Below are positions 1,039 through 63,536 of a stretch of DNA of 64,000 nucleotides, one piece after another. The first letter of the stretch is position 1. Each line of letters starts with the position of its first letter. Made by a program: the position numbers and the translations under genes. The DNA comes from a bacterium (GTDB taxonomy: Bacteria > Patescibacteriota > Saccharimonadia > Saccharimonadales > DATKHC01). Below the pieces are notes generated by a model that was given only the letters and a program-made list of their open reading frames with translations, made no database searches and was not told where the DNA came from. Location of the stretch: positions 147,371 through 211,370 of the forward strand of contig JAJXXC010000002.1 of NCBI GenBank assembly GCA_021781215.1, in the 5' to 3' direction.

Positions 1039-2133
1039 TTAGCTCTTAAGCGGCATAATAATATGGGTGTAGCTTGAGCTAGATTCTTTACTTGATAATA
1101 CTATTGGCTCTAACTTTCCATTAAACTTAACGTCAACATTATCTCCAGTTAAAACGTTTAAGGCTTCAAGTAGATATCTTGAGTTCATGGTAACCACTCC
1201 ATCACCAGCCACCTTAGCTTCGGCTGTTGCGGTGTTTTCACCAAGTTGTGAAGCAATTGAGTGAATACTAATTTGTTGGTTTTCTTCAGAAGTATTTATA
1301 GTAATACTACCGGCGCTTTCTCTTGCGAATAAAGCCGATACCTTAGTTATATTATTTAAGTCGTTTTTTGGTAGAGAAATTGTGGTGGTAAATTTCTTAG
1401 GAATCAGTTGACGATAATCTGGGTATTTACCATCAATAAGTCTAGCGGTTAGCTCAATATCACCAGCTGCAAATAATACTTGTTGATCATTATAAGTAAT
1501 TGCTACCTCACCGCTATAGTCTCCAATAATTCTAAGTAAATCTGATATAGCTGATGCTGGAACTAGAATATTAGTTTCTTGATCAGTTGGAGTGACTAGT
1601 TTTTCAGCTAATCGATAACTGTCAGTCGCCACAATATATAAATTCTTATTAAAACTATTAAAATAAACTCCTGTTAATATTGGCCTAGTTTCGTCACTCG
1701 AAGCTGCAATTACAACCTGAGACAAGCTTTGTTTTAAGCTGGCTGCGGGTAGGGTAATGGTTTGACCTTTTTCAATTGCTGGCATAACCGGGAAGTCTTC
1801 GCTTGAAACACCATTCATTACTGACTTATACATCCTGGAATTAATGTGTAGTTTATTATCGTCGAGGTTTAGATCAATAACTCCACTCGGCATATTACTA
1901 ATTAGGTCCTGGATTAGTCTGGCAGGGATAGTAATTGATCCTTCTTTAACAACCTTAGAGCCAATATAGTGGGTAACTGCTATATCTAGATTTGTGGCAG
2001 ATACACTTAATCGGTTATTAACGGTTTTAAGAAGCACGTTCGAAAGAATAGGTAGGGTAGACCTAGTGCTGGCTACTCTAGCTACGCTACTAAGAGCCTT
2101 ATTTAGGTTTTCCTGGGTGACTTGTAGTTTCAT
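1039..2133 (-). CDS. dnaN: DNA polymerase III beta sliding clamp
   Basis: 364-aa ORF. N-terminus MKLQVTQENLNKALSSVARVAS..TLPILSNVLL and C-terminus ..EPIVL...HIIMPLK are DnaN-like. Located between dnaA and recF. Confidence 0.95.
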   Translation of the reverse strand: MKLQVTQENLNKALSSVARVASTRSTLPILSNVLLKTVNNRLSVSATNLDIAVTHYIGSKVVKEGSITIPARLIQDLISNMPSGVIDLNLDDNKLHINSRMYKSVMNGVSSEDFPVMPAIEKGQTITLPAASLKQSLSQVVIAASSDETRPILTGVYFNSFNKNLYIVATDSYRLAEKLVTPTDQETNILVPASAISDLLRIIGDYSGEVAITYNDQQVLFAAGDIELTARLIDGKYPDYRQLIPKKFTTTISLPKNDLNNITKVSALFARESAGSITINTSEENQQISIHSIASQLGENTATAEAKVAGDGVVTMNSRYLLEALNVLTGDNVDVKFNGKLEPIVLSSKESSSSYTHIIMPLKS

Positions 2134-2403
2134 TATTTTTCCTCCGCGCTAGTTAATAATAAATTATTTATATACTTTGTTATAGCTCTTATTGGTCTTG
2201 TGGAAAGGTTGGAAAAGTCAGATTTTACAGAGTAATTGTTTGTAAAAAGTGTTGGGGATAGGCTGTTTATTGAACTAGTATTGGTGGGTATAAAACAGGG
2301 GTTTGTACCACTCACTAAAATTAATATTTTTTTAGCAGCGTATAAACTACCAGCTAATACACTAACAAACCACAACCTATCCACAACTAAAAAGCTACCA
2401 GGG
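2134..2403. promoter_or_regulatory. dnaA-dnaN intergenic region with DnaA-box-like 9-mers (possible second oriC module)
   Basis: CTATCCACA at 2377..2385 (+). CTTTCCACA on the minus strand at 2199..2207. AT-rich run about 2321..2336. The 92-aa ORF 2133..2411 that fills this gap has no recognisable features. Confidence 0.45.
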
Positions 2404-3789
2404 TTAGACATATAGTCGCTCCTTGATTTCTTTTACAGCTGTTCTGATCTGACCGTTTAAGCCAATTTCTCTCTCTATTTTGTCAACTGAATGAATGGCT
2501 GTAGTGTGGTCTTTGCGACCAAGCTCATGAGCTATTTTAGGAAAACTTAGGTGAAGTTCACTACGAAGAATATACATAGCAATTTGTCTTGGCATCACAA
2601 TATCTTTATCTCGCTTAGGCCCCATAATATCTTCAAGAGCGATTCTAAAATGTTTAGCAGTCTTATCCACCACCTGTCTTGGGTTAATGTGTTTTGGTCG
2701 GGTCTGGTTGCTGCTAAGTAGGTTCATCGCAATATCTAGGTTGGGCGAAATCTCACGCATCTCACAAAAAGCCAACAGCTGATTAAGTACACCCTCGAGC
2801 TCTCTAATGTTGGTTTGGATTAACTTGGCAAGATACTCTACTATGTCGTTTGTTAGAACAATTCCCTTATCATGGGCTTTGCTTTGAATAATTGCACACC
2901 TAGTTTCAAAATCCGGGGTTTGCATATCAATAGTCATGCCCCAAGCAAAACGGCTTCGGAGTCTTTCTTCTAGGGTTGGAATATCTCTTGGCGGTTTGTC
3001 GCTGCTAATAATAATTTGTTTATTGGCTTGATGTAGGGCATTAAAGGTATGGAAAAACTCTTCTTGCATCTTTTCTTTGCCAGCAATAAATTGAACGTCG
3101 TCAATAATCAACACATCGACGCTGCGATAGTTTTGAGCAAACTCATTAGTCTTTTTGTATCTCAAAGCACTAACAAATTCTTGGACGAACTGTTCTGAAG
3201 AAATATAAACTACTTTTTTATCTGGCTGATTTTTAACAATACTATTACCCACAGCTTGAATTAAGTGGGTTTTGCCAATACCAACACCACCATAAACAAA
3301 CAAGGGGTTATATTTGGTTCCCGGTATATTACTAATTGACATACAGGCGGCGTAGGCTAGCTCGTTGCCACTGCCAACCACAAAGTTCTCAAAAGTATAC
3401 TTCTCGTTAAGGCCTTGTCTGTAATCATGAGAATATGGGCTGGACGGGGCTGATACGGTTAGATGAGCTGGTAGGGGGTCGTCAGAGCTGGTTGTAGTCT
3501 TTGGCTCAAACTGTTTAGCCTCAACTTCTACTGGGTGGTTACTGCCAAAGGAATGAATCTTAAAGTGCAGACCTTCAGGTTTTACGCCATTTTTTTGTAA
3601 CAACTCAGAGATTAGGCCAGTATATTTGTTTTCCAACTGTTGTTTAATAAAGACGTTAGGGACCCCTACGACAATTACCCCACCCTTATTTTTAAGTAGA
3701 GTAGTTTGCTTGAACCAGGTTAAATAACTAGCATGTGAGACACTAAGTTCAACTTCACCAAGTACAGCCTGCCACAGATTATCCTGCAT
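2404..3789 (-). CDS. dnaA: Chromosomal replication initiator DnaA
   Basis: 461 aa. AAA+ Walker A GGVGIGKTHL, Walker B LIIDDVQF, and C-terminal DNA-binding region ..GRKDHTTAIHSVDKI. GAGGGAG Shine-Dalgarno about 12 nt upstream. Confidence 0.97.
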   Translation of the reverse strand: MQDNLWQAVLGEVELSVSHASYLTWFKQTTLLKNKGGVIVVGVPNVFIKQQLENKYTGLISELLQKNGVKPEGLHFKIHSFGSNHPVEVEAKQFEPKTTTSSDDPLPAHLTVSAPSSPYSHDYRQGLNEKYTFENFVVGSGNELAYAACMSISNIPGTKYNPLFVYGGVGIGKTHLIQAVGNSIVKNQPDKKVVYISSEQFVQEFVSALRYKKTNEFAQNYRSVDVLIIDDVQFIAGKEKMQEEFFHTFNALHQANKQIIISSDKPPRDIPTLEERLRSRFAWGMTIDMQTPDFETRCAIIQSKAHDKGIVLTNDIVEYLAKLIQTNIRELEGVLNQLLAFCEMREISPNLDIAMNLLSSNQTRPKHINPRQVVDKTAKHFRIALEDIMGPKRDKDIVMPRQIAMYILRSELHLSFPKIAHELGRKDHTTAIHSVDKIEREIGLNGQIRTAVKEIKERLYV

Positions 3790-8905: not shown

Positions 8906-9135
8906 CTATAGTATTCTAACACCCCTAGCAACCGACGTGATCTACGGATGCACTAAATGATTCACCCTATGAATTAACTAATATTTATATAAACAGATAA
9001 AAACATCGAATATTTTATCGCCTTTTACTATTTATATAAATATAGAGACATATATTATTTTATTTTTTATTCCAAGAGGTATATAGTGCAAATTAATAGA
9101 AAGTGGTGGTGGCCTTCTCTAGCCTAGGTATCATC

Positions 9136-9975
9136 ATGAACAAAAAAACGTCAAAAACAACTAACAAGCAAGCAAGTAGTAGTTTAACTCCAAGATCAGT
9201 AGTGATTACTAAGCAGCAATTACTAATATTAACTAGGATATATAATTTTAGATTTGTTAGTACGGCTCAATTGCAGCAATTATTAGCCAAGAAGCAACTT
9301 CAACAAGTCCAACAACGATTGAATTTATTACTTAAACGTGGCTATATTGGTCGAAACTTTAGCAATCAGGATAGATTAACTGGCAGGTATGCTTCCTATT
9401 ATCTTTTACCAAAGGGCATGAAGGTCCTCAGGCAACATCAAATTAAACTAGATGTTAAATTAAATTCTAAAGTACTCCACAATATTTATAAGGACAAAAC
9501 TGCCTCCACCAGGTTTATTAATCATTGCCTCGGCGTAGGAGACATTAATTGTCATTTAAAGCGGTTGTACGGCGAGGATATCGAATTTATTTCTAAGAGC
9601 AAATTAGCAGACTATGATTTCCTGCCCAACCCTTTGCCAGATGCCTTTATAAGACAAGATAAAACCCAAGAATATTTTCTTGAATACTGCGAAGAGATAG
9701 TACCTTTTTTTGTATACAGAAAAAGAATTAAACAATATGTTGAGGTATATATTGAGGAGGGAGCCTGGAAAGATGCAACTGGCACAGAATTGCCAACCAT
9801 ACGACTGGTTGCTGAAACGCCGGTACTACAAAGAAGACTAAAAAGATTTATTACCAAGTACCTTAATAATTTATATATGGGCACAGGTGCTAGATTCTTA
9901 ATAACCAACCTGGAACGGCTTAAAACCTCGGATAGCCAATTTATATGGAGTGTAATAATCCAAGAAGAAGAGTAG
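9136..9975 (+). CDS. Replication-relaxation-like winged-helix protein (hypothetical)
   Basis: ORF track starts at GTG 9103; ATG at 9136 (MNKKTSK..) is more likely. ITKQQLLILTRIYNFRFVSTAQLQQLL....QQRLNLLLKRGYIGR resembles the N-terminal wHTH of the Replic_Relax family. Flanked by long AT-rich spacers. Confidence 0.4.
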   Translation: MNKKTSKTTNKQASSSLTPRSVVITKQQLLILTRIYNFRFVSTAQLQQLLAKKQLQQVQQRLNLLLKRGYIGRNFSNQDRLTGRYASYYLLPKGMKVLRQHQIKLDVKLNSKVLHNIYKDKTASTRFINHCLGVGDINCHLKRLYGEDIEFISKSKLADYDFLPNPLPDAFIRQDKTQEYFLEYCEEIVPFFVYRKRIKQYVEVYIEEGAWKDATGTELPTIRLVAETPVLQRRLKRFITKYLNNLYMGTGARFLITNLERLKTSDSQFIWSVIIQEEE

Positions 9976-44952: not shown

Positions 44953-45216
44953 TTATCTATAAAGCTGGCTGTGTGTACCGCAAGCAACAAACCAAGCTAC
45001 GGTTTCATTATCAGTAAGCTCAAAATGAGCTCGCCAGTCACCCCCAAAAGCTATAGAACGATAACCTTTCCATTCACCTGTCAGCGGGTGATTATATAAG
45101 TCAGGATGTTTCGGTTGGTTTTGAAATAGCTTGATTGCTTCTTCTAGTCGCTTTTTTTGTGCTGGTTTTAAACTAACTGCTTGCTTAATGAAATCCTTGT
45201 GAAGCTTGATGATCAT
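44953..45216 (-). CDS. Type II toxin, RelE/YafQ-family mRNA interferase
   Basis: 87 aa. NHPLTGEWKGYRSIAFGGDWRAHF......GTHSQLY fits the RelE/YafQ pattern. 4-nt overlap with the upstream antitoxin. Confidence 0.8.
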   Translation of the reverse strand: MIIKLHKDFIKQAVSLKPAQKKRLEEAIKLFQNQPKHPDLYNHPLTGEWKGYRSIAFGGDWRAHFELTDNETVAWFVACGTHSQLYR

Positions 45217-45491
45217 TGCAAGTTTTTAAAGAAATCATCTAGTTCGGCTTCATTATTAATAGTAGTGTAGTTACGACCCGCTTTACGATCCGCCAAGGCC
45301 TCACGCATAATCTTTTCGAGGTAAGGAGTAGGTTCAAGCGTAGGTGATAGTACTACGCGGCCTTCTTTAACTGCTTGCTTTAAGACAACAGTAACAAATG
45401 CGCTGACGGATAGGCCAACAGAATTAGCGAATTCGGTAATATCTTTTTTTGTCCTATCATCAGTCCTAATACTTAGTAATGCGTTGCTCAT
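45213..45491 (-). CDS. Type II antitoxin, RelB/DinJ-family ribbon-helix-helix
   Basis: Start taken at ATG 45491 (MSNALLSIRTDDRTKKDITEFANSVGLSVSAFV..), 9 nt downstream of a consensus promoter. The track start at 45512 would lie inside that promoter. Confidence 0.75.
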   Translation of the reverse strand: MSNALLSIRTDDRTKKDITEFANSVGLSVSAFVTVVLKQAVKEGRVVLSPTLEPTPYLEKIMREALADRKAGRNYTTINNEAELDDFFKNLQ

Positions 45492-45500
45492 AATGATTAC

Positions 45501-45530
45501 ATTGTATAGCAATTGTCATCTATATGTCAA
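45501..45530 (-). promoter_or_regulatory. Promoter of dinJ-yafQ-like operon 1
   Basis: The minus strand reads TTGACA, 18 nt, TACAAT, then 9 nt to the ATG. Flanked upstream by the 9-bp-arm palindrome ATGCATTTT/AAAATGCAT (45532..45555). Confidence 0.55.
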
Positions 45531-49008: not shown

Positions 49009-49269
49009 TTATTTGTATAATTGAGAGTGTTTTCCGACAGCAACAAATCTAGCCGTATCTTTATCTTGCTGGATGTAGTGCGCTCTCCAGTCACCGCCAA
49101 AAGCAATTGAACGGTGATTTTTCCATTCACCTGATAGTGGGTGATTATATAAATTTGGATTAGTCGGATCGTTTCGGAATATTATAATAATTTCTTCAAA
49201 TCGTCTTTTTTGCGTAATCGGTAGTTTAGAGTATTGTTTGATAAACTGTTTATGAAAAACAGTTTTCAT
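49009..49269 (-). CDS. Type II toxin, RelE/YafQ family (paralog of 44953..45216)
   Basis: 86 aa. NHPLSGEWKNHRSIAFGGDWRAHY......GKHSQLY. Roughly half the residues are identical to the first copy by eye. Confidence 0.8.
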   Translation of the reverse strand: MKTVFHKQFIKQYSKLPITQKRRFEEIIIIFRNDPTNPNLYNHPLSGEWKNHRSIAFGGDWRAHYIQQDKDTARFVAVGKHSQLYK

Positions 49270-49541
49270 AATGACCGTAAATATCCTAGCGTTTCTTCAT
49301 CGGTATCAGTTGATACTAGCTCTTTACTTATTCTATAGTCAGATTCAGCCTCTTTAATTATAGATTTAAGATAGGGGGTAGGTGTGAGATTGGTATTGAA
49401 TTCGACTTTTCCAGTCCTAAGTATCTGTTTTATTTGAGCATTTAATAAAGATGAAACCGGTAGACCAATTTGCTGGGCAAAGTTTTTAATCTGCTCTTTG
49501 GTTTCAGGATCAGTCTTGATGTTTAGTATAGCTGTGTTCAT
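49266..49541 (-). CDS. Type II antitoxin, RelB/DinJ family (paralog of 45213..45491)
   Basis: 91 aa. MNTAILNIKTDPETKEQIKNFAQQIGLPVSSLL. 4-nt overlap with the toxin gene. Confidence 0.75.
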   Translation of the reverse strand: MNTAILNIKTDPETKEQIKNFAQQIGLPVSSLLNAQIKQILRTGKVEFNTNLTPTPYLKSIIKEAESDYRISKELVSTDTDEETLGYLRSL

Positions 49542-57791: not shown

Positions 57792-57900
57792 ATGAATATA
57801 CTATAACATAAGTTAACTAAAATTACAACAGAATCACTAAAAAACTAAACATGATTTGATATGGTTAACTGATAATTCATATAAAAAAATAGGACTATTC

Positions 57901-57909
57901 TGTTATAAT
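57901..57909 (+). promoter_or_regulatory. Extended -10 promoter element for tRNA-Met
   Basis: TGTTATAAT (TGnTATAAT) ending 12 nt before the tRNA 5' end. Confidence 0.5.
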
Positions 57910-57921
57910 TTTGCTATTGAC

Positions 57922-57997
57922 GGGGCTGTAGCTCAGTGGTTAGAGCAGTCGGCTCATAACCGATTGGTCGTTGGTTCAAGTCCAACCAGCCCCACCA
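57922..57997 (+). tRNA. tRNA with CAT anticodon (elongator Met, or Ile2 if lysidine-modified), CCA encoded
   Basis: Manual cloverleaf: acceptor GGGGCTG/CAGCCCC, D arm GCTC-AGTGGTTA-GAGC, anticodon arm GTCGG-CTCATAA-CCGAT, variable loop TGGTC, T arm GTTGG-TTCAAGT-CCAAC, discriminator A, then CCA. The G1-C72 pair and the lack of a GGG/CCC anticodon stem argue against an initiator. Confidence 0.9.
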
Positions 57998-58032
57998 ATA
58001 AATTGACAAAACATCAAGCTTATGCTAACATT

Positions 58033-58701
58033 ATGACTATGAGTAAATTTGAACAAAATCATGAAAAAACAAAAAAATCATTTATAAAAAGCAATACAAT
58101 GAAAGTTATTGCTGGTGCGGCACTATCAACATCTTTGTTGGGTTCAAGTGCTGAAATCGCTTCAGCTGGTGAAATTATTACGCAGAGCTCAGCTGCCGCT
58201 ATCTCACAGTCTCTAAATGAACATCAAGTTGCTAGAAACGTTGTGGTAGAGCAAGGTTATCAAATACCATTACAATATAACCATAATTCTACTAGTCCTG
58301 TGCCAATTTCAATTTACAACCCCATAAAATTAGGCAAAAATACATATGGCTACTTTAGTGATAATCCGAAAGCTGGACACATTGAACTTCATACTATTAA
58401 ATACGACAAACCATTACAGGTCAGTAGACCTATGAAGGATTATCAGACTAATAAGGAGTACATTGAAGAAATTATAACTCCAATATCCGTAGTTTACTCA
58501 CCTTTTTCTAGTTCGAATGGTCAGGCCGAAGTATATACTTTTGTTACGGTAGGTGATCATCCGGGTAACGTGAACGGATTAGTAGGGTTCACTCCAAATA
58601 GTAACTCAACTATACAGAGCGAAGAGACTAGTCAAGAATTATCCAAGATACAGTATGTCGGTGCACTGGATTGGTATACTCCCCTAGGCCCTAAAGGATA
58701 A
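58033..58701 (+). CDS. Secreted hypothetical protein
   Basis: The track ORF (57856..) runs through the tRNA, so the start must be ATG 58033 or ATG 58099. The latter gives the signal peptide MKVIAGAALSTSLLGSSAEIASA. Confidence 0.55.
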   Translation: MTMSKFEQNHEKTKKSFIKSNTMKVIAGAALSTSLLGSSAEIASAGEIITQSSAAAISQSLNEHQVARNVVVEQGYQIPLQYNHNSTSPVPISIYNPIKLGKNTYGYFSDNPKAGHIELHTIKYDKPLQVSRPMKDYQTNKEYIEEIITPISVVYSPFSSSNGQAEVYTFVTVGDHPGNVNGLVGFTPNSNSTIQSEETSQELSKIQYVGALDWYTPLGPKG

Positions 58702-58752
58702 CTTAACTTAGCTATCGAAAAAATGTCGAGTAGAATTGTTTATGCCGATAAG

Positions 58753-58798
58753 TAAGCTGTTGATAAACCTAATTCCTAAAAAATCCACTCTCTCTCAT
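58753..58798 (+). repeat. Conserved intergenic element, copy A
   Basis: TAAGCTGTTGATA..(20 nt)..CACTCTCTCTCAT. About 31 of 42 ungapped positions match copy B at 59096, with identical 33-nt spacing between the two conserved blocks. Confidence 0.6.
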
Positions 58799-59051: not shown

Positions 59052-59095
59052 AATACGACATGACTTTTGGAGATAAAAAATTTTATACCAAAGAC

Positions 59096-59139
59096 TAAGT
59101 TGTTGATAGATTTGATTACGAAAGTGTTCACTCTCTCAT
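59096..59139 (+). repeat. Conserved intergenic element, copy B
   Basis: TAAGTTGTTGATA..(20 nt)..CACTCTCTCAT. See copy A at 58753. Confidence 0.6.
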
Positions 59140-59315: not shown

Positions 59316-60074
59316 ATGAGCAAATTAAATAAAAACAATAGAGGCTTTGGTGGTGTTGAGCTAATATTGATAATCGTTATAGTTGTATTAATTGGCGTAG
59401 TAGGATGGTTGGTTTACAAGAATCATAATAAAGTAGCCCCAACTAAGACTGCTGCAGTAAATAAAACGATTGCAAAGACAACTCAGGGAACATCTACTAA
59501 TAAAAGTGTTACTGCTAATCCTTATGCGGGCTGGAAAACATATAATTCTATCCTTAATAGCGGATTATCTTTTGAATATCCGGCGAACTGGGTATTTACT
59601 CCAGCGAACAAACCATTTACGAATAATAATGGTGGAGTCGAAAATGATTCTTCCTTAACTAGCGCTGTAGTCCAAACTAAACCTGGCGTAGCATCTAATG
59701 TAGCCACAAATCAATATATGTGTGTGTCATTTGATGAATATGGGGGAACTTGGTCATACGGTGGTTGGAATCTAGTACAAAACTACGGACCGTTATTATC
59801 AAGTGAAAGTTTCAAGGTTGGTAGCGTCAATCTTTCTTTGAATACATATCAGGGGTCTAGTCCCATGCTGGATACTATGGAGCTGGTAAGTGTTCCTCCT
59901 AGTAATCTTGGTAGCCAATACATTAATACACAAAATAATTTTTCGGTTATAGTACAAGCACAATTTAATTGTGGCCAGGGCGGTCAGTCTGGTATTACAA
60001 ACTTGAACGCTGATTTTAATAGTCAACCAGAAACTGCAATAGCTAAACTAATTATGAAGAGCATTAAGTTCTAG
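59316..60074 (+). CDS. Type IV pilin-like (prepilin-type N-terminus) secreted protein, atypical
   Basis: 252 aa. MSKLNKNNRG/FGGVELILIIVIVVLIGVVGWLVY has the G/F cleavage context with Glu at +5, followed by a hydrophobic helix. The rest is S/T/N-rich with two Cys near the C-terminus. Confidence 0.45.
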   Translation: MSKLNKNNRGFGGVELILIIVIVVLIGVVGWLVYKNHNKVAPTKTAAVNKTIAKTTQGTSTNKSVTANPYAGWKTYNSILNSGLSFEYPANWVFTPANKPFTNNNGGVENDSSLTSAVVQTKPGVASNVATNQYMCVSFDEYGGTWSYGGWNLVQNYGPLLSSESFKVGSVNLSLNTYQGSSPMLDTMELVSVPPSNLGSQYINTQNNFSVIVQAQFNCGQGGQSGITNLNADFNSQPETAIAKLIMKSIKF

Positions 60075-60179
60075 GCCTGATAAAATGATATTGCCTAGCG
60101 ATTGCCCATCGAATCTACCATCGCCGAACCGATAATTAAACAGGTTCCTGACTTCAGGATTATCGCTTAGAGCCACTAA
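60066..60179 (-). repeat. Left arm of perfect 114-bp inverted repeat (inverted copy of yvcK codons 63-100)
   Basis: The reverse complement of 60066..60179 equals 60536..60649 at 114/114 positions (checked 10-mer by 10-mer). It overlaps the last 9 nt of the pilin-like CDS and lies inside the 66-aa minus-strand ORF 60048..60248. Confidence 0.95.
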
Positions 60180-60349
60180 ATATTGGCGTAGATATTGTTG
60201 TATTGAAGAAGATAATCGAGGTTTTAGGGGAAATGAAAATTCAGCCAAGGCACCTCGGAAGATATGCCGCCATCTACGCCAGAGACGTATCTGGCTATTA
60301 ATCAGTCAATAGTCAATTATTAAAACAGCTATTTTGTTAGAATATATGT

Positions 60350-61336
60350 ATGATTCAAAATAGCCCTAGCATTGTAGTAATCGGTGGCGGTACTGGTAGT
60401 TTTACTATACTCAAGGATCTTAAAAAGTTTACTCCTAATGTAACGGCTATAGTTAATATGAGTGATGATGGTGGATCGAGCGGAGTCCTTAGAGATGAAT
60501 TAGGGGTATTGCCGCCGGGAGATATACGTCAATGCTTAGTGGCTCTAAGCGATAATCCTGAAGTCAGGAACCTGTTTAATTATCGGTTCGGCGATGGTAG
60601 ATTCGATGGGCAATCGCTAGGCAATATCATTTTATCAGGCCTAGAACTTCAACATCGTAGTCTAGGAAAGGCAATTCAGGTCTCCAGTGATATATTGCAT
60701 ATCATAGGTAGGGTTATACCAGTAACTTTGACTAAGCATGTCTTAGTTATGGAAGATGGCCCGACTACCATTAAGGGGGAGTATGAAATAACCAAAAGAG
60801 TTATCAAGTCTAAAAAACCTCTTATGCACCTAGAACCTATGGCTAAAATAAATAAAGAAGCAACTAAGGCAATTATGGATGCCGATTTAGTAGTTATTGC
60901 ACCCGGTAACTTGTATGGTTCGTTATTGCCAATTTTTAGTGTTAAGGGGGTTGCTGAAGCCATTGCTAGCTCCAAGGCTAAAGTCATTGAAATAGTTAAC
61001 CTAGTAAATAAGCCGGGACAGACCGATAACTGGCATGTGGCAGATTACGTTAATGAGCTAGAGAGATATATTGGCAAGGATCAAATTGACGTAGTTTTAT
61101 ATAATACCGAACCAATATCTAACGAGTTAATTGCAAAATATGCCGCCGATAAAGAGTTCCCAGTCAGCATTAATCCCACGCGCCTTAAGCGGATTGGGGC
61201 TAAACTAATCGGCACCCGTTTAGTCAGTAGGGAAATATCTGCCCAAGATCCAAATGATAAAAAAATTAGGCGGACATTAATCCGACACGACGGAGTAGAA
61301 ATTAGCAGACAGTTGATGAGAATCTATTATGAGTAG
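60350..61336 (+). CDS. yvcK: YvcK/CofD-like (UPF0052, gluconeogenesis factor family) protein
   Basis: 328 aa. VVIGGGTGSFTILKDLKKF...VNMSDDGGSSGVLRDELGVLPPGDIRQCLVALS is the family N-terminal signature. TGTTAGAAT extended -10 at 60335..60343, 6 nt before the ATG. Confidence 0.85.
   Translation: MIQNSPSIVVIGGGTGSFTILKDLKKFTPNVTAIVNMSDDGGSSGVLRDELGVLPPGDIRQCLVALSDNPEVRNLFNYRFGDGRFDGQSLGNIILSGLELQHRSLGKAIQVSSDILHIIGRVIPVTLTKHVLVMEDGPTTIKGEYEITKRVIKSKKPLMHLEPMAKINKEATKAIMDADLVVIAPGNLYGSLLPIFSVKGVAEAIASSKAKVIEIVNLVNKPGQTDNWHVADYVNELERYIGKDQIDVVLYNTEPISNELIAKYAADKEFPVSINPTRLKRIGAKLIGTRLVSREISAQDPNDKKIRRTLIRHDGVEISRQLMRIYYE
60536..60649 (+). repeat. Right arm of perfect 114-bp inverted repeat (within yvcK)
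   Basis: Codons 63-100 of yvcK (LVALSDNPEVRNLFNYRFGDGRFDGQSLGNIILSGLEL). Exact reverse complement of 60066..60179. Confidence 0.95.
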
Positions 61337-61400
61337 ACCGGTAGCTATTTTTAGATCCCCATATTCTAATAATATCCAAAAGTGATAGGATGTATATACG

Positions 61401-61838
61401 GTGCAAGAACAAATACAAAAAATACTAAATAAGATCCCCTACAAAAATCTACAAGACGTAAGAGCGGTAGGGTTAATTGTCTTTGGAATCATCGTTTTAA
61501 TGATTACTTGGAGTGGTATTGGCACTATTCAAACCAATTATAATCTCCAAAAGCAGATTAATCAGTTATCTCAAGAAAGTGCCAATCAACAACTAGAAAA
61601 CAAAAACTTAGCTCTTGAAAATCAATATTATAATACTAATCAATATGTTGAGTTACAGGCTAGGGCTCTTCTGGATAAAGGGTTGCCTGGAGAAACTTTA
61701 ATTTTGGTTCCGAAGTCAGTTGCCTATAGCCAATTAGCGCCTGAACCAAAGACTCCGTCAGCCAACACCAATATCCAGAAACCCTTCTACCAGCAAAACT
61801 TTGAAGCCTGGATGGCTTTTTATTTCCACCGAAATTAA
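61401..61838 (+). CDS. FtsB/DivIC-like septum formation initiator
   Basis: 145 aa with a GTG start. Single TM (AVGLIVFGIIVLMITW), a coiled coil (LQKQINQLSQESANQQLENKNLALEN), then YVELQARALLDKGLPGETLILVP, typical of the DivIC/FtsB family. Confidence 0.6.
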   Translation: MQEQIQKILNKIPYKNLQDVRAVGLIVFGIIVLMITWSGIGTIQTNYNLQKQINQLSQESANQQLENKNLALENQYYNTNQYVELQARALLDKGLPGETLILVPKSVAYSQLAPEPKTPSANTNIQKPFYQQNFEAWMAFYFHRN

Positions 61839-62719
61839 TTAAGCTGTTTAAGTAAGTATTCCCTTAGGTCTTTACCGATGTCTGGGTCACTAACACCGAA
61901 ATCAAAGACTGTTTTAATGTATTCTAATTTATTGCCCGAGTCATGATATTTCCCGTTCATCACTTTATAGGCAAGGGTTTCGCGTCCGGCGTCTATCATT
62001 AATTGTATGGCTTTTTGAAGAGATATTTCTTGTCCGTTCTCTATGCCTTCGCTCGCTTGGTTAAGAAATTTGAATATTTCAGGATTGAATATATAGCTAC
62101 TAACACTGGCAATGTTGGATTTGGCATTGGCTTTTCCAGGTTTTTCAATTATAGAGTCCATTGATACGAGATTACTATCAATATTTTTACCAGAAATTAC
62201 GCCGTATCTTAGGTAGTCTTCAGCGCTATTGATTTCAATGCAAGACAATATATTGGCTTGATGCTGTTCATACACTTGAATCATCTGCTTGAATCTTGAT
62301 GGCTCGGCTTTAATAAAATCATCACCAAAGGTAAAGATAAAGGGTTCATTGCCGATTATGTGTTCCGAGTTCATTAAGGGCGCAGCATTACCTAAGAAAT
62401 TCTTTTGCCTAATGTAGATAAAGTTAGCCATGTTAGCAATATCATTTAATTCATCCAATAGGTAGTGTTTTTGTTTGTTTTGACTTAAGGTTTTAATTAA
62501 ATCACTGTTTGGTTCAGCGAAATGATCTTCAATAGACCGTTTGTTGTACCCCGTAACTATAACGATGTCTTCGATCCCGGCTTCAACTAATTCTTCGACA
62601 ATGTATTGAATAATTGGCTTATCTACCAGGGGCAACATTTCCTTAGGCATGGCTTTAGTTTGAGGTAGAAACCTAGTTCCCATTCCAGCAGCGGCAATAA
62701 CAGCTTTTCTAATCTTCAT
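61835..62719 (-). CDS. galU: UTP--glucose-1-phosphate uridylyltransferase
   Basis: 294 aa. KAVIAAAGMGTRFLPQTKAMPKEMLPLVDKPIIQYIVEE is canonical GalU. Confidence 0.9.
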   Translation of the reverse strand: MKIRKAVIAAAGMGTRFLPQTKAMPKEMLPLVDKPIIQYIVEELVEAGIEDIVIVTGYNKRSIEDHFAEPNSDLIKTLSQNKQKHYLLDELNDIANMANFIYIRQKNFLGNAAPLMNSEHIIGNEPFIFTFGDDFIKAEPSRFKQMIQVYEQHQANILSCIEINSAEDYLRYGVISGKNIDSNLVSMDSIIEKPGKANAKSNIASVSSYIFNPEIFKFLNQASEGIENGQEISLQKAIQLMIDAGRETLAYKVMNGKYHDSGNKLEYIKTVFDFGVSDPDIGKDLREYLLKQLN

Positions 62720-62772
62720 AAGTATATATTTTAAGTTATCCTTTTATTTAATATAAATTATTTTTGTTTTAG

Positions 62773-63321
62773 CTAGTATTTGATTGGAATAATGACGGAA
62801 TCGCTATTAGACGCTAATCCTGATGGATTATCTTTTTGTAAGACTATTGTTCCACTGCCGCTTTGTTCCCCAGAATATATCAACTTTACGGAGAATGGAA
62901 CTAGCTGATCTGTTTGCCAGCTACCCAGTACCTGGGCAGGGGTTTGAACGATTACATTCCCTGAGCTATCTTTTAATTGCACAGGGAAGCTGGCTTCAAA
63001 CGACCAATTGCCTGGAACTTCACCGACTACTGCGATTGGGCTAGCTACTATTGAATTCTTGAGCGGAGTATAGATTATGATTTTTACACCTTTTTGTGAG
63101 GTATATGTATAGCCAGGTTGTTGGATCTGATTTTTAAGCAAGTTCAATTGAGTATTTAGAGAAGTGACCTGTTTATCTAAAGTGTTAACTTTATTATGTT
63201 GCCAATTATATGTGCCGTAAATTGCCAAACCAGCAATTAAGATTAGCAATATTGCCAGTAAGACCTTGGCTAGTATATTGCCTCGAGATAAGTTTCGGTT
63301 ATTCTTCCAGGGTTGCCTCAT
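62773..63321 (-). CDS. Membrane-anchored Gmad2-type Ig-like domain protein (paralog-like of 21887..22435)
   Basis: Start taken at ATG 63321 (MRQPWKNNRNLSRGNILAKVLLAILLILIAGLAIY..). C-terminal ..PLKNSIVASPIAVVGEVPGNWSFEASFPVQLKD..G........GSGTIVLQKDNPSG domain. Confidence 0.6.
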   Translation of the reverse strand: MRQPWKNNRNLSRGNILAKVLLAILLILIAGLAIYGTYNWQHNKVNTLDKQVTSLNTQLNLLKNQIQQPGYTYTSQKGVKIIIYTPLKNSIVASPIAVVGEVPGNWSFEASFPVQLKDSSGNVIVQTPAQVLGSWQTDQLVPFSVKLIYSGEQSGSGTIVLQKDNPSGLASNSDSVIIPIKY

Positions 63322-63536
63322 AGTTCTATTATACTCTGATAGTACAAGTACTGATGTCATTGTGGCTAGATGCATGTTATTTAGTGGCGCTAAATAGAAA
63401 ACCCATACGGAGCGGCTATAGAGGTTATGGTACATATGACAGAACTTGTGCATTCCAGTTGGTGAGATGGAAATAACTACTTAAAGAGGATAAAGTGTTA
63501 GCTTGGTTTGATGGACGAAAAAGGAATTAAACTAAC

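Follow-up and report, generated by a model that had tools for sequence, protein, structure and literature searches.

A perfect inverted repeat around the start of yvcK in a Saccharibacterium is very probably a recent template-switch deletion scar

The inverted repeats of invertons are generally tens of bp long. In Hin, FimB/E, the capsular polysaccharide (CPS) promoters of Bacteroides and the intragenic invertons described with PhaVa, inverted repeats lie on either side of a promoter and the beginning of a coding sequence, and a flip recodes or truncates the product; the repeat described here is laid out in the same way. Known invertons are described as being flipped by site-specific recombinases that act on the repeats, and the repeat in the thiC example is 11 nt long (bioRxiv 10.1101/2023.03.11.532203). 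Perfect inverted repeats can also originate from template switching, for which 1-4-3-2 is one of the commonest patterns (PMC7954356), and in E. coli it has been described in association with quasipalindromes (PMC7202029). Here we analyzed a 114-bp perfect inverted repeat that brackets the promoter and first 62 codons of yvcK in a 64-kb stretch of DNA (contig JAJXXC010000002.1, positions 147,371 to 211,370; hereafter the window, with position 1 as its first nucleotide). An initial annotation had proposed either an invertible switch or a recombination scar. Comparison with sister genomes indicates that the repeat is very probably a recent deletion of the template-switch type with an inverted templated insertion, a real but ordinary scar.

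The left arm of the repeat (60066-60179, minus strand) is the exact reverse complement of the right arm (60536-60649, plus strand) over 114 of 114 positions, with 356 nt between the arms. Using a repeat finder, the pair stretches to 128 nt at 97% identity (60066-60193 and 60522-60649); 11 of the first 16 positions match on the inner side, and similarity on the outer side is random. No other inverted repeat of at least 35 nt is present in the window, and a 114-nt exact match cannot have arisen by chance. The right arm comprises codons 63-100 of yvcK, an intact gene of the CofD/YvcK family (PF01933) that encodes 328 aa at 60350-61336 on the plus strand. Since it is part of an intact, conserved gene, the right arm is the original copy and the template of the left arm. 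The left arm is 100% identical to yvcK of its own genome and 79-80% identical to yvcK of the relatives, which indicates a recent, local copy. It overlaps the last 9 nt, stop codon included, of a 252-aa gene at 59316-60074 (plus strand) and is contained within a 66-aa minus-strand open reading frame (ORF) at 60048-60248. The geometry given in the initial annotation was reproduced throughout: recomputation returned the 114/114 match, the yvcK ATG at 60350 and the loss of similarity just outside the core, the ORF list agreed on both overlaps of the left arm, and the -10 element, the tandem AGTCAAT (60304-60317) and the GGGTGS loop were all located in the bracketed segment.

Based on its YvcK homologs, the window belongs to an uncultured member of the Saccharibacteria (Saccharimonadales, TM7). 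The YvcK proteins of the nearest relatives (P0002-P0005, on contigs L059-L062) are 87-88% identical to that of the window. These contigs share the order of a 266-aa gene, a 207-nt spacer, a 252-aa GGDEF gene, a 27-nt spacer, yvcK, DivIC, and an NTP-transferase gene. By blastn, window 60000-60074 aligns at 83% to L059 2933-3007, the end of the ortholog of the 252-aa gene, and window 60176-62726 aligns at 81% to L059 3825-6380. The 817 nt in between (L059 3008-3824), which hold the spacer and the first ~205-209 codons of the GGDEF gene, are missing from the window, where precisely this gap is occupied by the left arm, which fills the deletion junction; the outcome is the same against L060, L061, and L062. 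Of the two possibilities that the initial annotation had raised, the recombination scar is therefore strongly supported, as the left arm lies exactly at the junction of a ~817-nt deletion that took away four-fifths of the GGDEF gene from its 5' end.

The 3' end of the GGDEF gene is still recognizable. Codons 210-251 of 252 remain at 60191-60316 (plus strand), with the start lost and a premature stop at 60299-60301, and residues 210-251 of the L059 GGDEF protein match this stretch at 69% identity (tblastn, E 6e-13). The remnant translates as VLKKIIEVLGEMKIQPRHLGRYAAIYARD, compared with VLKKIIEVLRDMKIQPRHLGKYAAIYARD in the relatives. The doubled AGTCAAT at 60304-60317 is a 7-nt tandem duplication, where the relatives have a single ...GATAGTCAATAC followed by TAA, and it is a slippage duplication in the pseudogene tail. 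The seemingly unique DNA to the right of the left arm is thus the decayed end of the GGDEF gene (42 codons) rather than a dedicated regulatory region. In the relative L062 (ENA ERZ27256801), the GGDEF gene at 1489-2246 is frameshifted, with residues 1-188 and 188-252 in different frames. The gene lost from the window is thus also decaying independently elsewhere, and loss of the GGDEF gene therefore seems to be tolerated.

Both junctions of the left arm carry short homologies. At the left junction, the window reads ...GAGCATT-AAGTTCTAG-GCCTGAT..., the pilin-like gene of the relatives ends in ...GAGCATT-AAGTTTTAG, and the reverse complement of yvcK reads ...GATGTTG-AAGTTCTAG-GCCTGAT.... In this three-way comparison the microhomology is 9 nt (60066-60074; 8 of 9 positions against the relatives), common to the end of the pilin-like gene and the reverse complement of yvcK 60641-60649. 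At the right junction, the perfect match ends in ...CCACTAA, and the GGDEF gene of the relatives has CCTAAAT where homology resumes. This junction (60176-60193) consists of CTAA and a patch of imperfect homology, and the blastn match to L059 begins at 60176. Within the patch, window 60182-60193 matches the reverse complement of yvcK at 10 of 12 positions and the relatives' GGDEF gene at 8 of 12; the latter two match each other at 8 of 12, in the same register.

In a recent ancestor of this strain, a single complex event very probably took out ~817 nt and put in 105-120 nt of reverse-complemented yvcK, covering codons 63-100. The deletion, the insertion, the microhomologies, and the pseudogene remnant are shown by the comparison, and the polymerase-level mechanism is inferred from them. 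The ancestor would have had the order seen in the relatives, with the pilin-like gene, the 207-nt spacer, a GGDEF gene of 252 codons, the 27-nt spacer, and yvcK, which places the source of the copied tract ~1.3 kb downstream in the ancestral layout as calculated from the coordinates. Most likely, the template was switched in two jumps in the course of replication or break repair, in an event of the 1-4-3-2 type and on the scale of fork stalling and template switching (FoSTeS) or microhomology-mediated break-induced replication (MMBIR). The nascent plus-sense strand would have come off its template where the pilin-like gene ends (...AAGTTCTAG, L059 ~3007) and re-annealed through the 9-nt microhomology to the opposite strand within yvcK (L059 ~4300). 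Roughly 114 nt would then have been copied backwards, ending at L059 ~4187, before the strand returned to its original template within the GGDEF gene at the CTAA and adjoining patch (L059 ~3829). Points 3007, 4300, 4187, and 3829 therefore give the order 1-4-3-2. The present-day left arm is non-coding filler that separates the pilin-like gene from the GGDEF pseudogene remnant. The genes dnaN and dnaA lie at 1039-3789, at the left end of the window, which therefore begins at a probable replication origin. This position and the mostly positive GC skew make the plus strand the probable leading strand in this stretch, a premise of the cross-fork switch model. The locus has no hallmarks of a mobile element (transposase, or terminal repeats with target-site duplication): Pfam matched no transposase or integrase in the window ORFs of at least 150 aa, and the flanks are orthologous to genes of the relatives.

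Several points weigh against this account of the locus. The ancestor is reconstructed from relatives that are only ~80% identical in DNA, with no closer genome covering the locus, and as a consequence the exact return point within 60176-60193 is ambiguous. Three mismatches crowd beside the perfect 114-mer and need microhomology, heteroduplex or later mutation to explain them. The jump of ~1.3 kb and the deletion of ~0.8 kb both exceed those of classic short-range quasipalindrome switches. An identical scar would be expected from break repair with templated synthesis, or from two steps in which an inverted duplication preceded a deletion.

The initial annotation had taken a perfect core with diverged flanks as a sign of ongoing gene conversion or of a very recent event. 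A simpler account replaces the first of these: the inner bases are ancestral GGDEF sequence that by chance resembled the reverse complement of yvcK and acted as microhomology for the return switch. Gene conversion is unneeded to account for the perfect core, since all genomes sampled belong to one clone (0-1 differences over 3.5-8.4 kb), and the diverged inner flank is pre-existing imperfect homology at the return point rather than the worn edge of an older, longer repeat. Its second suggestion agrees with the comparison above: the arms are identical because the event is recent, not because the copies are being homogenized.

The best candidate for dating the event more closely is a strain at 96% DNA identity (L012, from Logan contigs of SRR5080639), which matches window 61019-63337 and has an identical DivIC protein. 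Its contig begins at window 61019, downstream of the repeat. Variants of the pilin-like or YvcK proteins at 90% identity or above were not present in the protein collection.

We next consider whether the structure is genuine. Exact-protein look-up located the same strain (DNA 100% identical, with one difference at most) in four MEGAHIT assemblies at ENA (ERZ27236853, ERZ27236897, ERZ27236847, and ERZ27236866), and it is also present in the NCBI metagenome-assembled genome (MAG) GCA_021833525.1 and in Logan contigs of SRR17201898. Contigs were gathered by exact match to three proteins that an inversion leaves unchanged, namely the pilin-like protein, YvcK, and DivIC. Four independent contigs span the repeat (L001/L005/L009, L002/L010, L003, and L006, from ERZ27236853, ERZ27236897, ERZ27236847, and GCA_021833525.1), all in the orientation of the window. 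A scan of JGI metagenomes with the arm sequence returned 0 matches, and the strain is therefore not in that collection. The contig of the NCBI MAG, L006, equals the window only from 58040 on, and its first 108 nt differ; this start, ~40 nt downstream of a tRNA gene, suggests either that the strains differ there or that the contig end is an artefact.

A chimera of assembly or amplification, with unrelated reads artificially joined at the left arm, has in its favor that inverted junctions are typical of chimeras and that several contigs stop within the arms. Against it, the Logan contigs of SRR17201898, assembled at k=31, end at 60095 and restart at 60620, which is 30 nt into each arm, because a true exact repeat breaks a 31-mer graph exactly there. 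Furthermore, four spanning contigs from different assemblies carry the identical structure, and the junction is a coherent deletion with an in-register pseudogene remnant and microhomologies. We therefore give a chimera almost no weight; as an explanation it is very unlikely and effectively refuted. The initial annotation had held that related genomes lacking any inverted yvcK fragment would count against its proposal. Such a fragment was indeed lacking in 52 of 52 related loci, which speaks against a switch.

The alternative in which the repeat is functional is a two-state, partly intragenic inverton that flips the yvcK promoter and first 62 codons. Here, full-length YvcK in one state would be exchanged for a 289-aa protein with a replaced N-terminus and a 105-aa fragment in the other. 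The geometry is suggestive, as a perfect 114-bp inverted repeat flanks the promoter and 5' coding sequence, a flip would keep the frame, and intragenic invertons exist in other bacteria (bioRxiv 10.1101/2023.03.11.532203). In silico inversion yielded the two products expected, a 289-aa fusion of a 23-residue head to YvcK residues 63-328 and a 105-aa fragment consisting of YvcK residues 1-100 and NALHN. The in-frame fusion predicted by the initial annotation was thus recovered, but the two-state switch gained no support, with a single orientation and no equivalent in the relatives. The inverted fragment was found in 0 of 52 other loci, 46 from other species and six from closer relatives (L059-L062 plus L063 and L064, two loci of a 75% relative). 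In addition, the deletion junction already accounts for the left arm, and all four spanning contigs have one orientation.

The predicted products also argue against a switch. YvcK matches its relatives in the Protein Data Bank (2PPV, 2HZB, and 2O2Z) at E values of about 1e-56; residues 7-292 align to 2PPV (E 3e-56), with IGGGTG and DDGGS kept. Residues 1-62 are the most conserved part of the family, and GGGTGS (residues 12-17) and MSDDGGS are among the best conserved positions in the structure alignment. The flipped protein would lose residues 1-62, the conserved nucleotide-binding N-terminus, including both of these motifs, which are kept in the alignment with 2PPV, 2HZB, and 2O2Z. Based on this, the inverted state would be a null allele and not a second isoform.

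The 23-residue head (MAEFSF...RQY) is an antisense reading of the GGDEF pseudogene, which again counts against a working switch. It forms the first part of the 66-aa ORF, in which 23 aa antisense to the GGDEF remnant are followed by 38 aa from the yvcK copy and 5 aa antisense to the end of the pilin-like gene. The frame stays open through the left arm because the arm copies coding sequence, and both the ORF and the in-frame fusion follow automatically from copying an open coding segment. This ORF is called as a gene in no complete contig, its exact sequence was not found in a collection of ~15 billion predicted proteins, and a homology search with it returned only two ordinary YvcK fragments, a weak negative since that search missed YvcK itself. 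It is a by-product and not a gene. Exact look-up of the flipped-state products of 105 aa, 289 aa, and 265 aa in the same collection likewise found none.

No recombinase (Phage_integrase, Resolvase, or Recombinase) was detected by Pfam among the 49 ORFs of at least 150 aa and the right-hand genes, a search that covered the 64-kb window; the initial annotation had likewise seen none there. A dedicated invertase would not be required, as 114 bp of perfect homology suffices for RecA-dependent recombination. Rare RecA-driven flipping between the 114-bp arms may therefore occur. Inversion between perfect arms makes no new k-mer shorter than the arm, and only reads that span an arm can discriminate the two states. 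The two short contigs of ERZ27236866 that overlap by 107 nt within the left arm (L008 ends at 60175 and L004 starts at 60069) would also come from a mixed orientation. However, such a break is also expected where a repeat exceeds an intermediate k-mer in a low-coverage sample. As a sign of mixed orientation the breaks were set aside as uninformative, since an assembly at an intermediate k of ~111 would fail to resolve the repeat in this low-coverage sample. Taken together, we consider a working two-state switch very unlikely.

The deletion probably leaves expression of yvcK itself unaffected. An extended -10-like element, TGTTAGAAT, lies at 60335-60343 (plus strand), 6 nt 5' of the yvcK ATG, and the corresponding element in L059 and L062 is TGTTAGTAT. 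It is likely yvcK's own promoter, with a putative function in producing a leaderless or near-leaderless mRNA, and it was spared by the deletion. Elements of the form TGnTAnnAT (for example TGTGGTATAAT and TGTTAGAAT) are found 6-12 nt 5' of the yvcK start in many Saccharibacteria, without a Shine-Dalgarno sequence; the loci include the window and L013, L015, L017, L018, L023, L042, L047, and L056. With these elements placed so near the start, yvcK mRNAs of this lineage may have no leader or almost none.

A scar of this kind could still have consequences at the RNA level. Read-through from the pilin-like gene, or its 3'-untranslated RNA, would be antisense to yvcK codons 63-100 over 114 nt and could pair in cis or in trans with yvcK mRNA, forming a long duplex that is a possible RNase III target and would couple expression of the two genes. 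In a consensus scan, the plus strand from 60074 to 60350 contained nothing resembling a terminator, although this kind of scan is coarse and little is known of how promoters and terminators are built in Saccharibacteria. The spacer that divides two transcription units in the relatives is deleted here. A transcript of 60040-60680 is predicted to fold into the full stem, at -322.7 kcal/mol compared with -162 kcal/mol for shuffled sequences (z = -32), a strength that arises because the arms are complementary by construction. Conversely, the arrangement is not conserved and matches no Rfam family, and the role would be an accidental side effect in one clonal lineage. An RNA role for the scar is accordingly highly unlikely in our view, and antisense read-through is a possible side effect rather than an evolved function.

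A related idea is that the scar is incipient, either as a recombinase-free switch, in which RecA flips would maintain a reversible YvcK-null subpopulation at low frequency, or as a 114-nt antisense that silences yvcK. We regard this as improbable. If true, either case would show a replication error in an episymbiotic Saccharibacterium giving rise to a new circuit, of the phase-variation or the antisense kind.

The gene to the left of the repeat corresponds, as an ortholog, to the 266-aa gene found in the sister species, with 52% identity over the full length to L059 2207-3004 (tblastn). Its product has a hydrophobic N-terminal helix and a G-F-x-x-x-E motif. A Pfam search gave no family match for this protein, and the label "pilin-like" refers to the resemblance of its N-terminus, RGFGGVELILIIV, to a prepilin signal. 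A conserved element of ~55-90 nt (TTTATGCCGATAAGTAAGCTGTTGATAAACC...CACTCTCTC), with 71-85% identity between copies, is found upstream of this region at window 58739-58794 and 59082-59137. Further copies are present at L059 35-108, 1242-1291, 2024-2094, and 3112-3190 and at L063 3851-3938. The element precedes several small secreted or pilin-like genes and, in the relatives, also the GGDEF gene or yvcK directly. It has no Rfam match and may be a shared promoter or leader.

Elsewhere in the window, two paralogous pairs of small minus-strand genes are present at 44953-45512 and 49009-49541 (86/87 aa and 91/99 aa), within which a 134-nt direct repeat of 75% identity recurs 4 kb apart. By their size and paired layout, these genes look like toxin-antitoxin modules; between the two pairs lie a Na+/H+ exchanger and further small ORFs of toxin-antitoxin-like appearance. 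A 281-aa ORF at 57856-58701 holds a tRNA-Met gene (57922-57997) in its 5' part, and the real gene is therefore probably the 200-aa form (P0125). This tRNA-Met was the only match in an Rfam scan of the window. A Replic_Relax protein (PF13814) is encoded at 9103-9972, ~5 kb from dnaN/dnaA, among cell-envelope glycosylation genes.

The locus serves as a caution. A long perfect inverted repeat around a promoter mimics a phase-variation switch, and inverton-finding pipelines that start from repeats would flag scars of this kind; here, sister genomes reveal a single complex mutation. The mutation killed a GGDEF gene, of the type associated with cyclic-di-GMP signaling, and provides a well-resolved natural example of how template switching on the kilobase scale can add to gene loss where genomes are reduced, here in the candidate phyla radiation (CPR). 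It is a known kind of mutation in a new instance, and nothing suggests a new biological system.

Compared with invertons, for which both orientations are seen in reads, this repeat is 114 bp of coding sequence with no nearby invertase, is found in one orientation, and is absent in the relatives. The closer resemblance is to template-switch mutations as described by the four-point model of Loytynoja and Goldman. As in those mutations, a nearby reverse-complement copy replaces ancestral sequence and makes a perfect inverted repeat in the order 1-4-3-2, with microhomology at both switch points. The difference is in scale, as the tract of ~114 nt, the jump of ~1.3 kb, and the deletion of ~0.8 kb contrast with the tens of bases of classic events. 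In contrast to quasipalindrome switching, there is also no pre-existing long quasipalindrome that was "corrected" here, and the mechanism is one that we infer. In scale the event is closer to FoSTeS/MMBIR than to classic short-range switches. Its outcome resembles the reductive gene loss of CPR bacteria and Saccharibacteria, in that a dispensable GGDEF gene was destroyed and its remnant is decaying through a stop and a 7-nt duplication, but the deletion is not a clean one and carries a templated inverted insertion.

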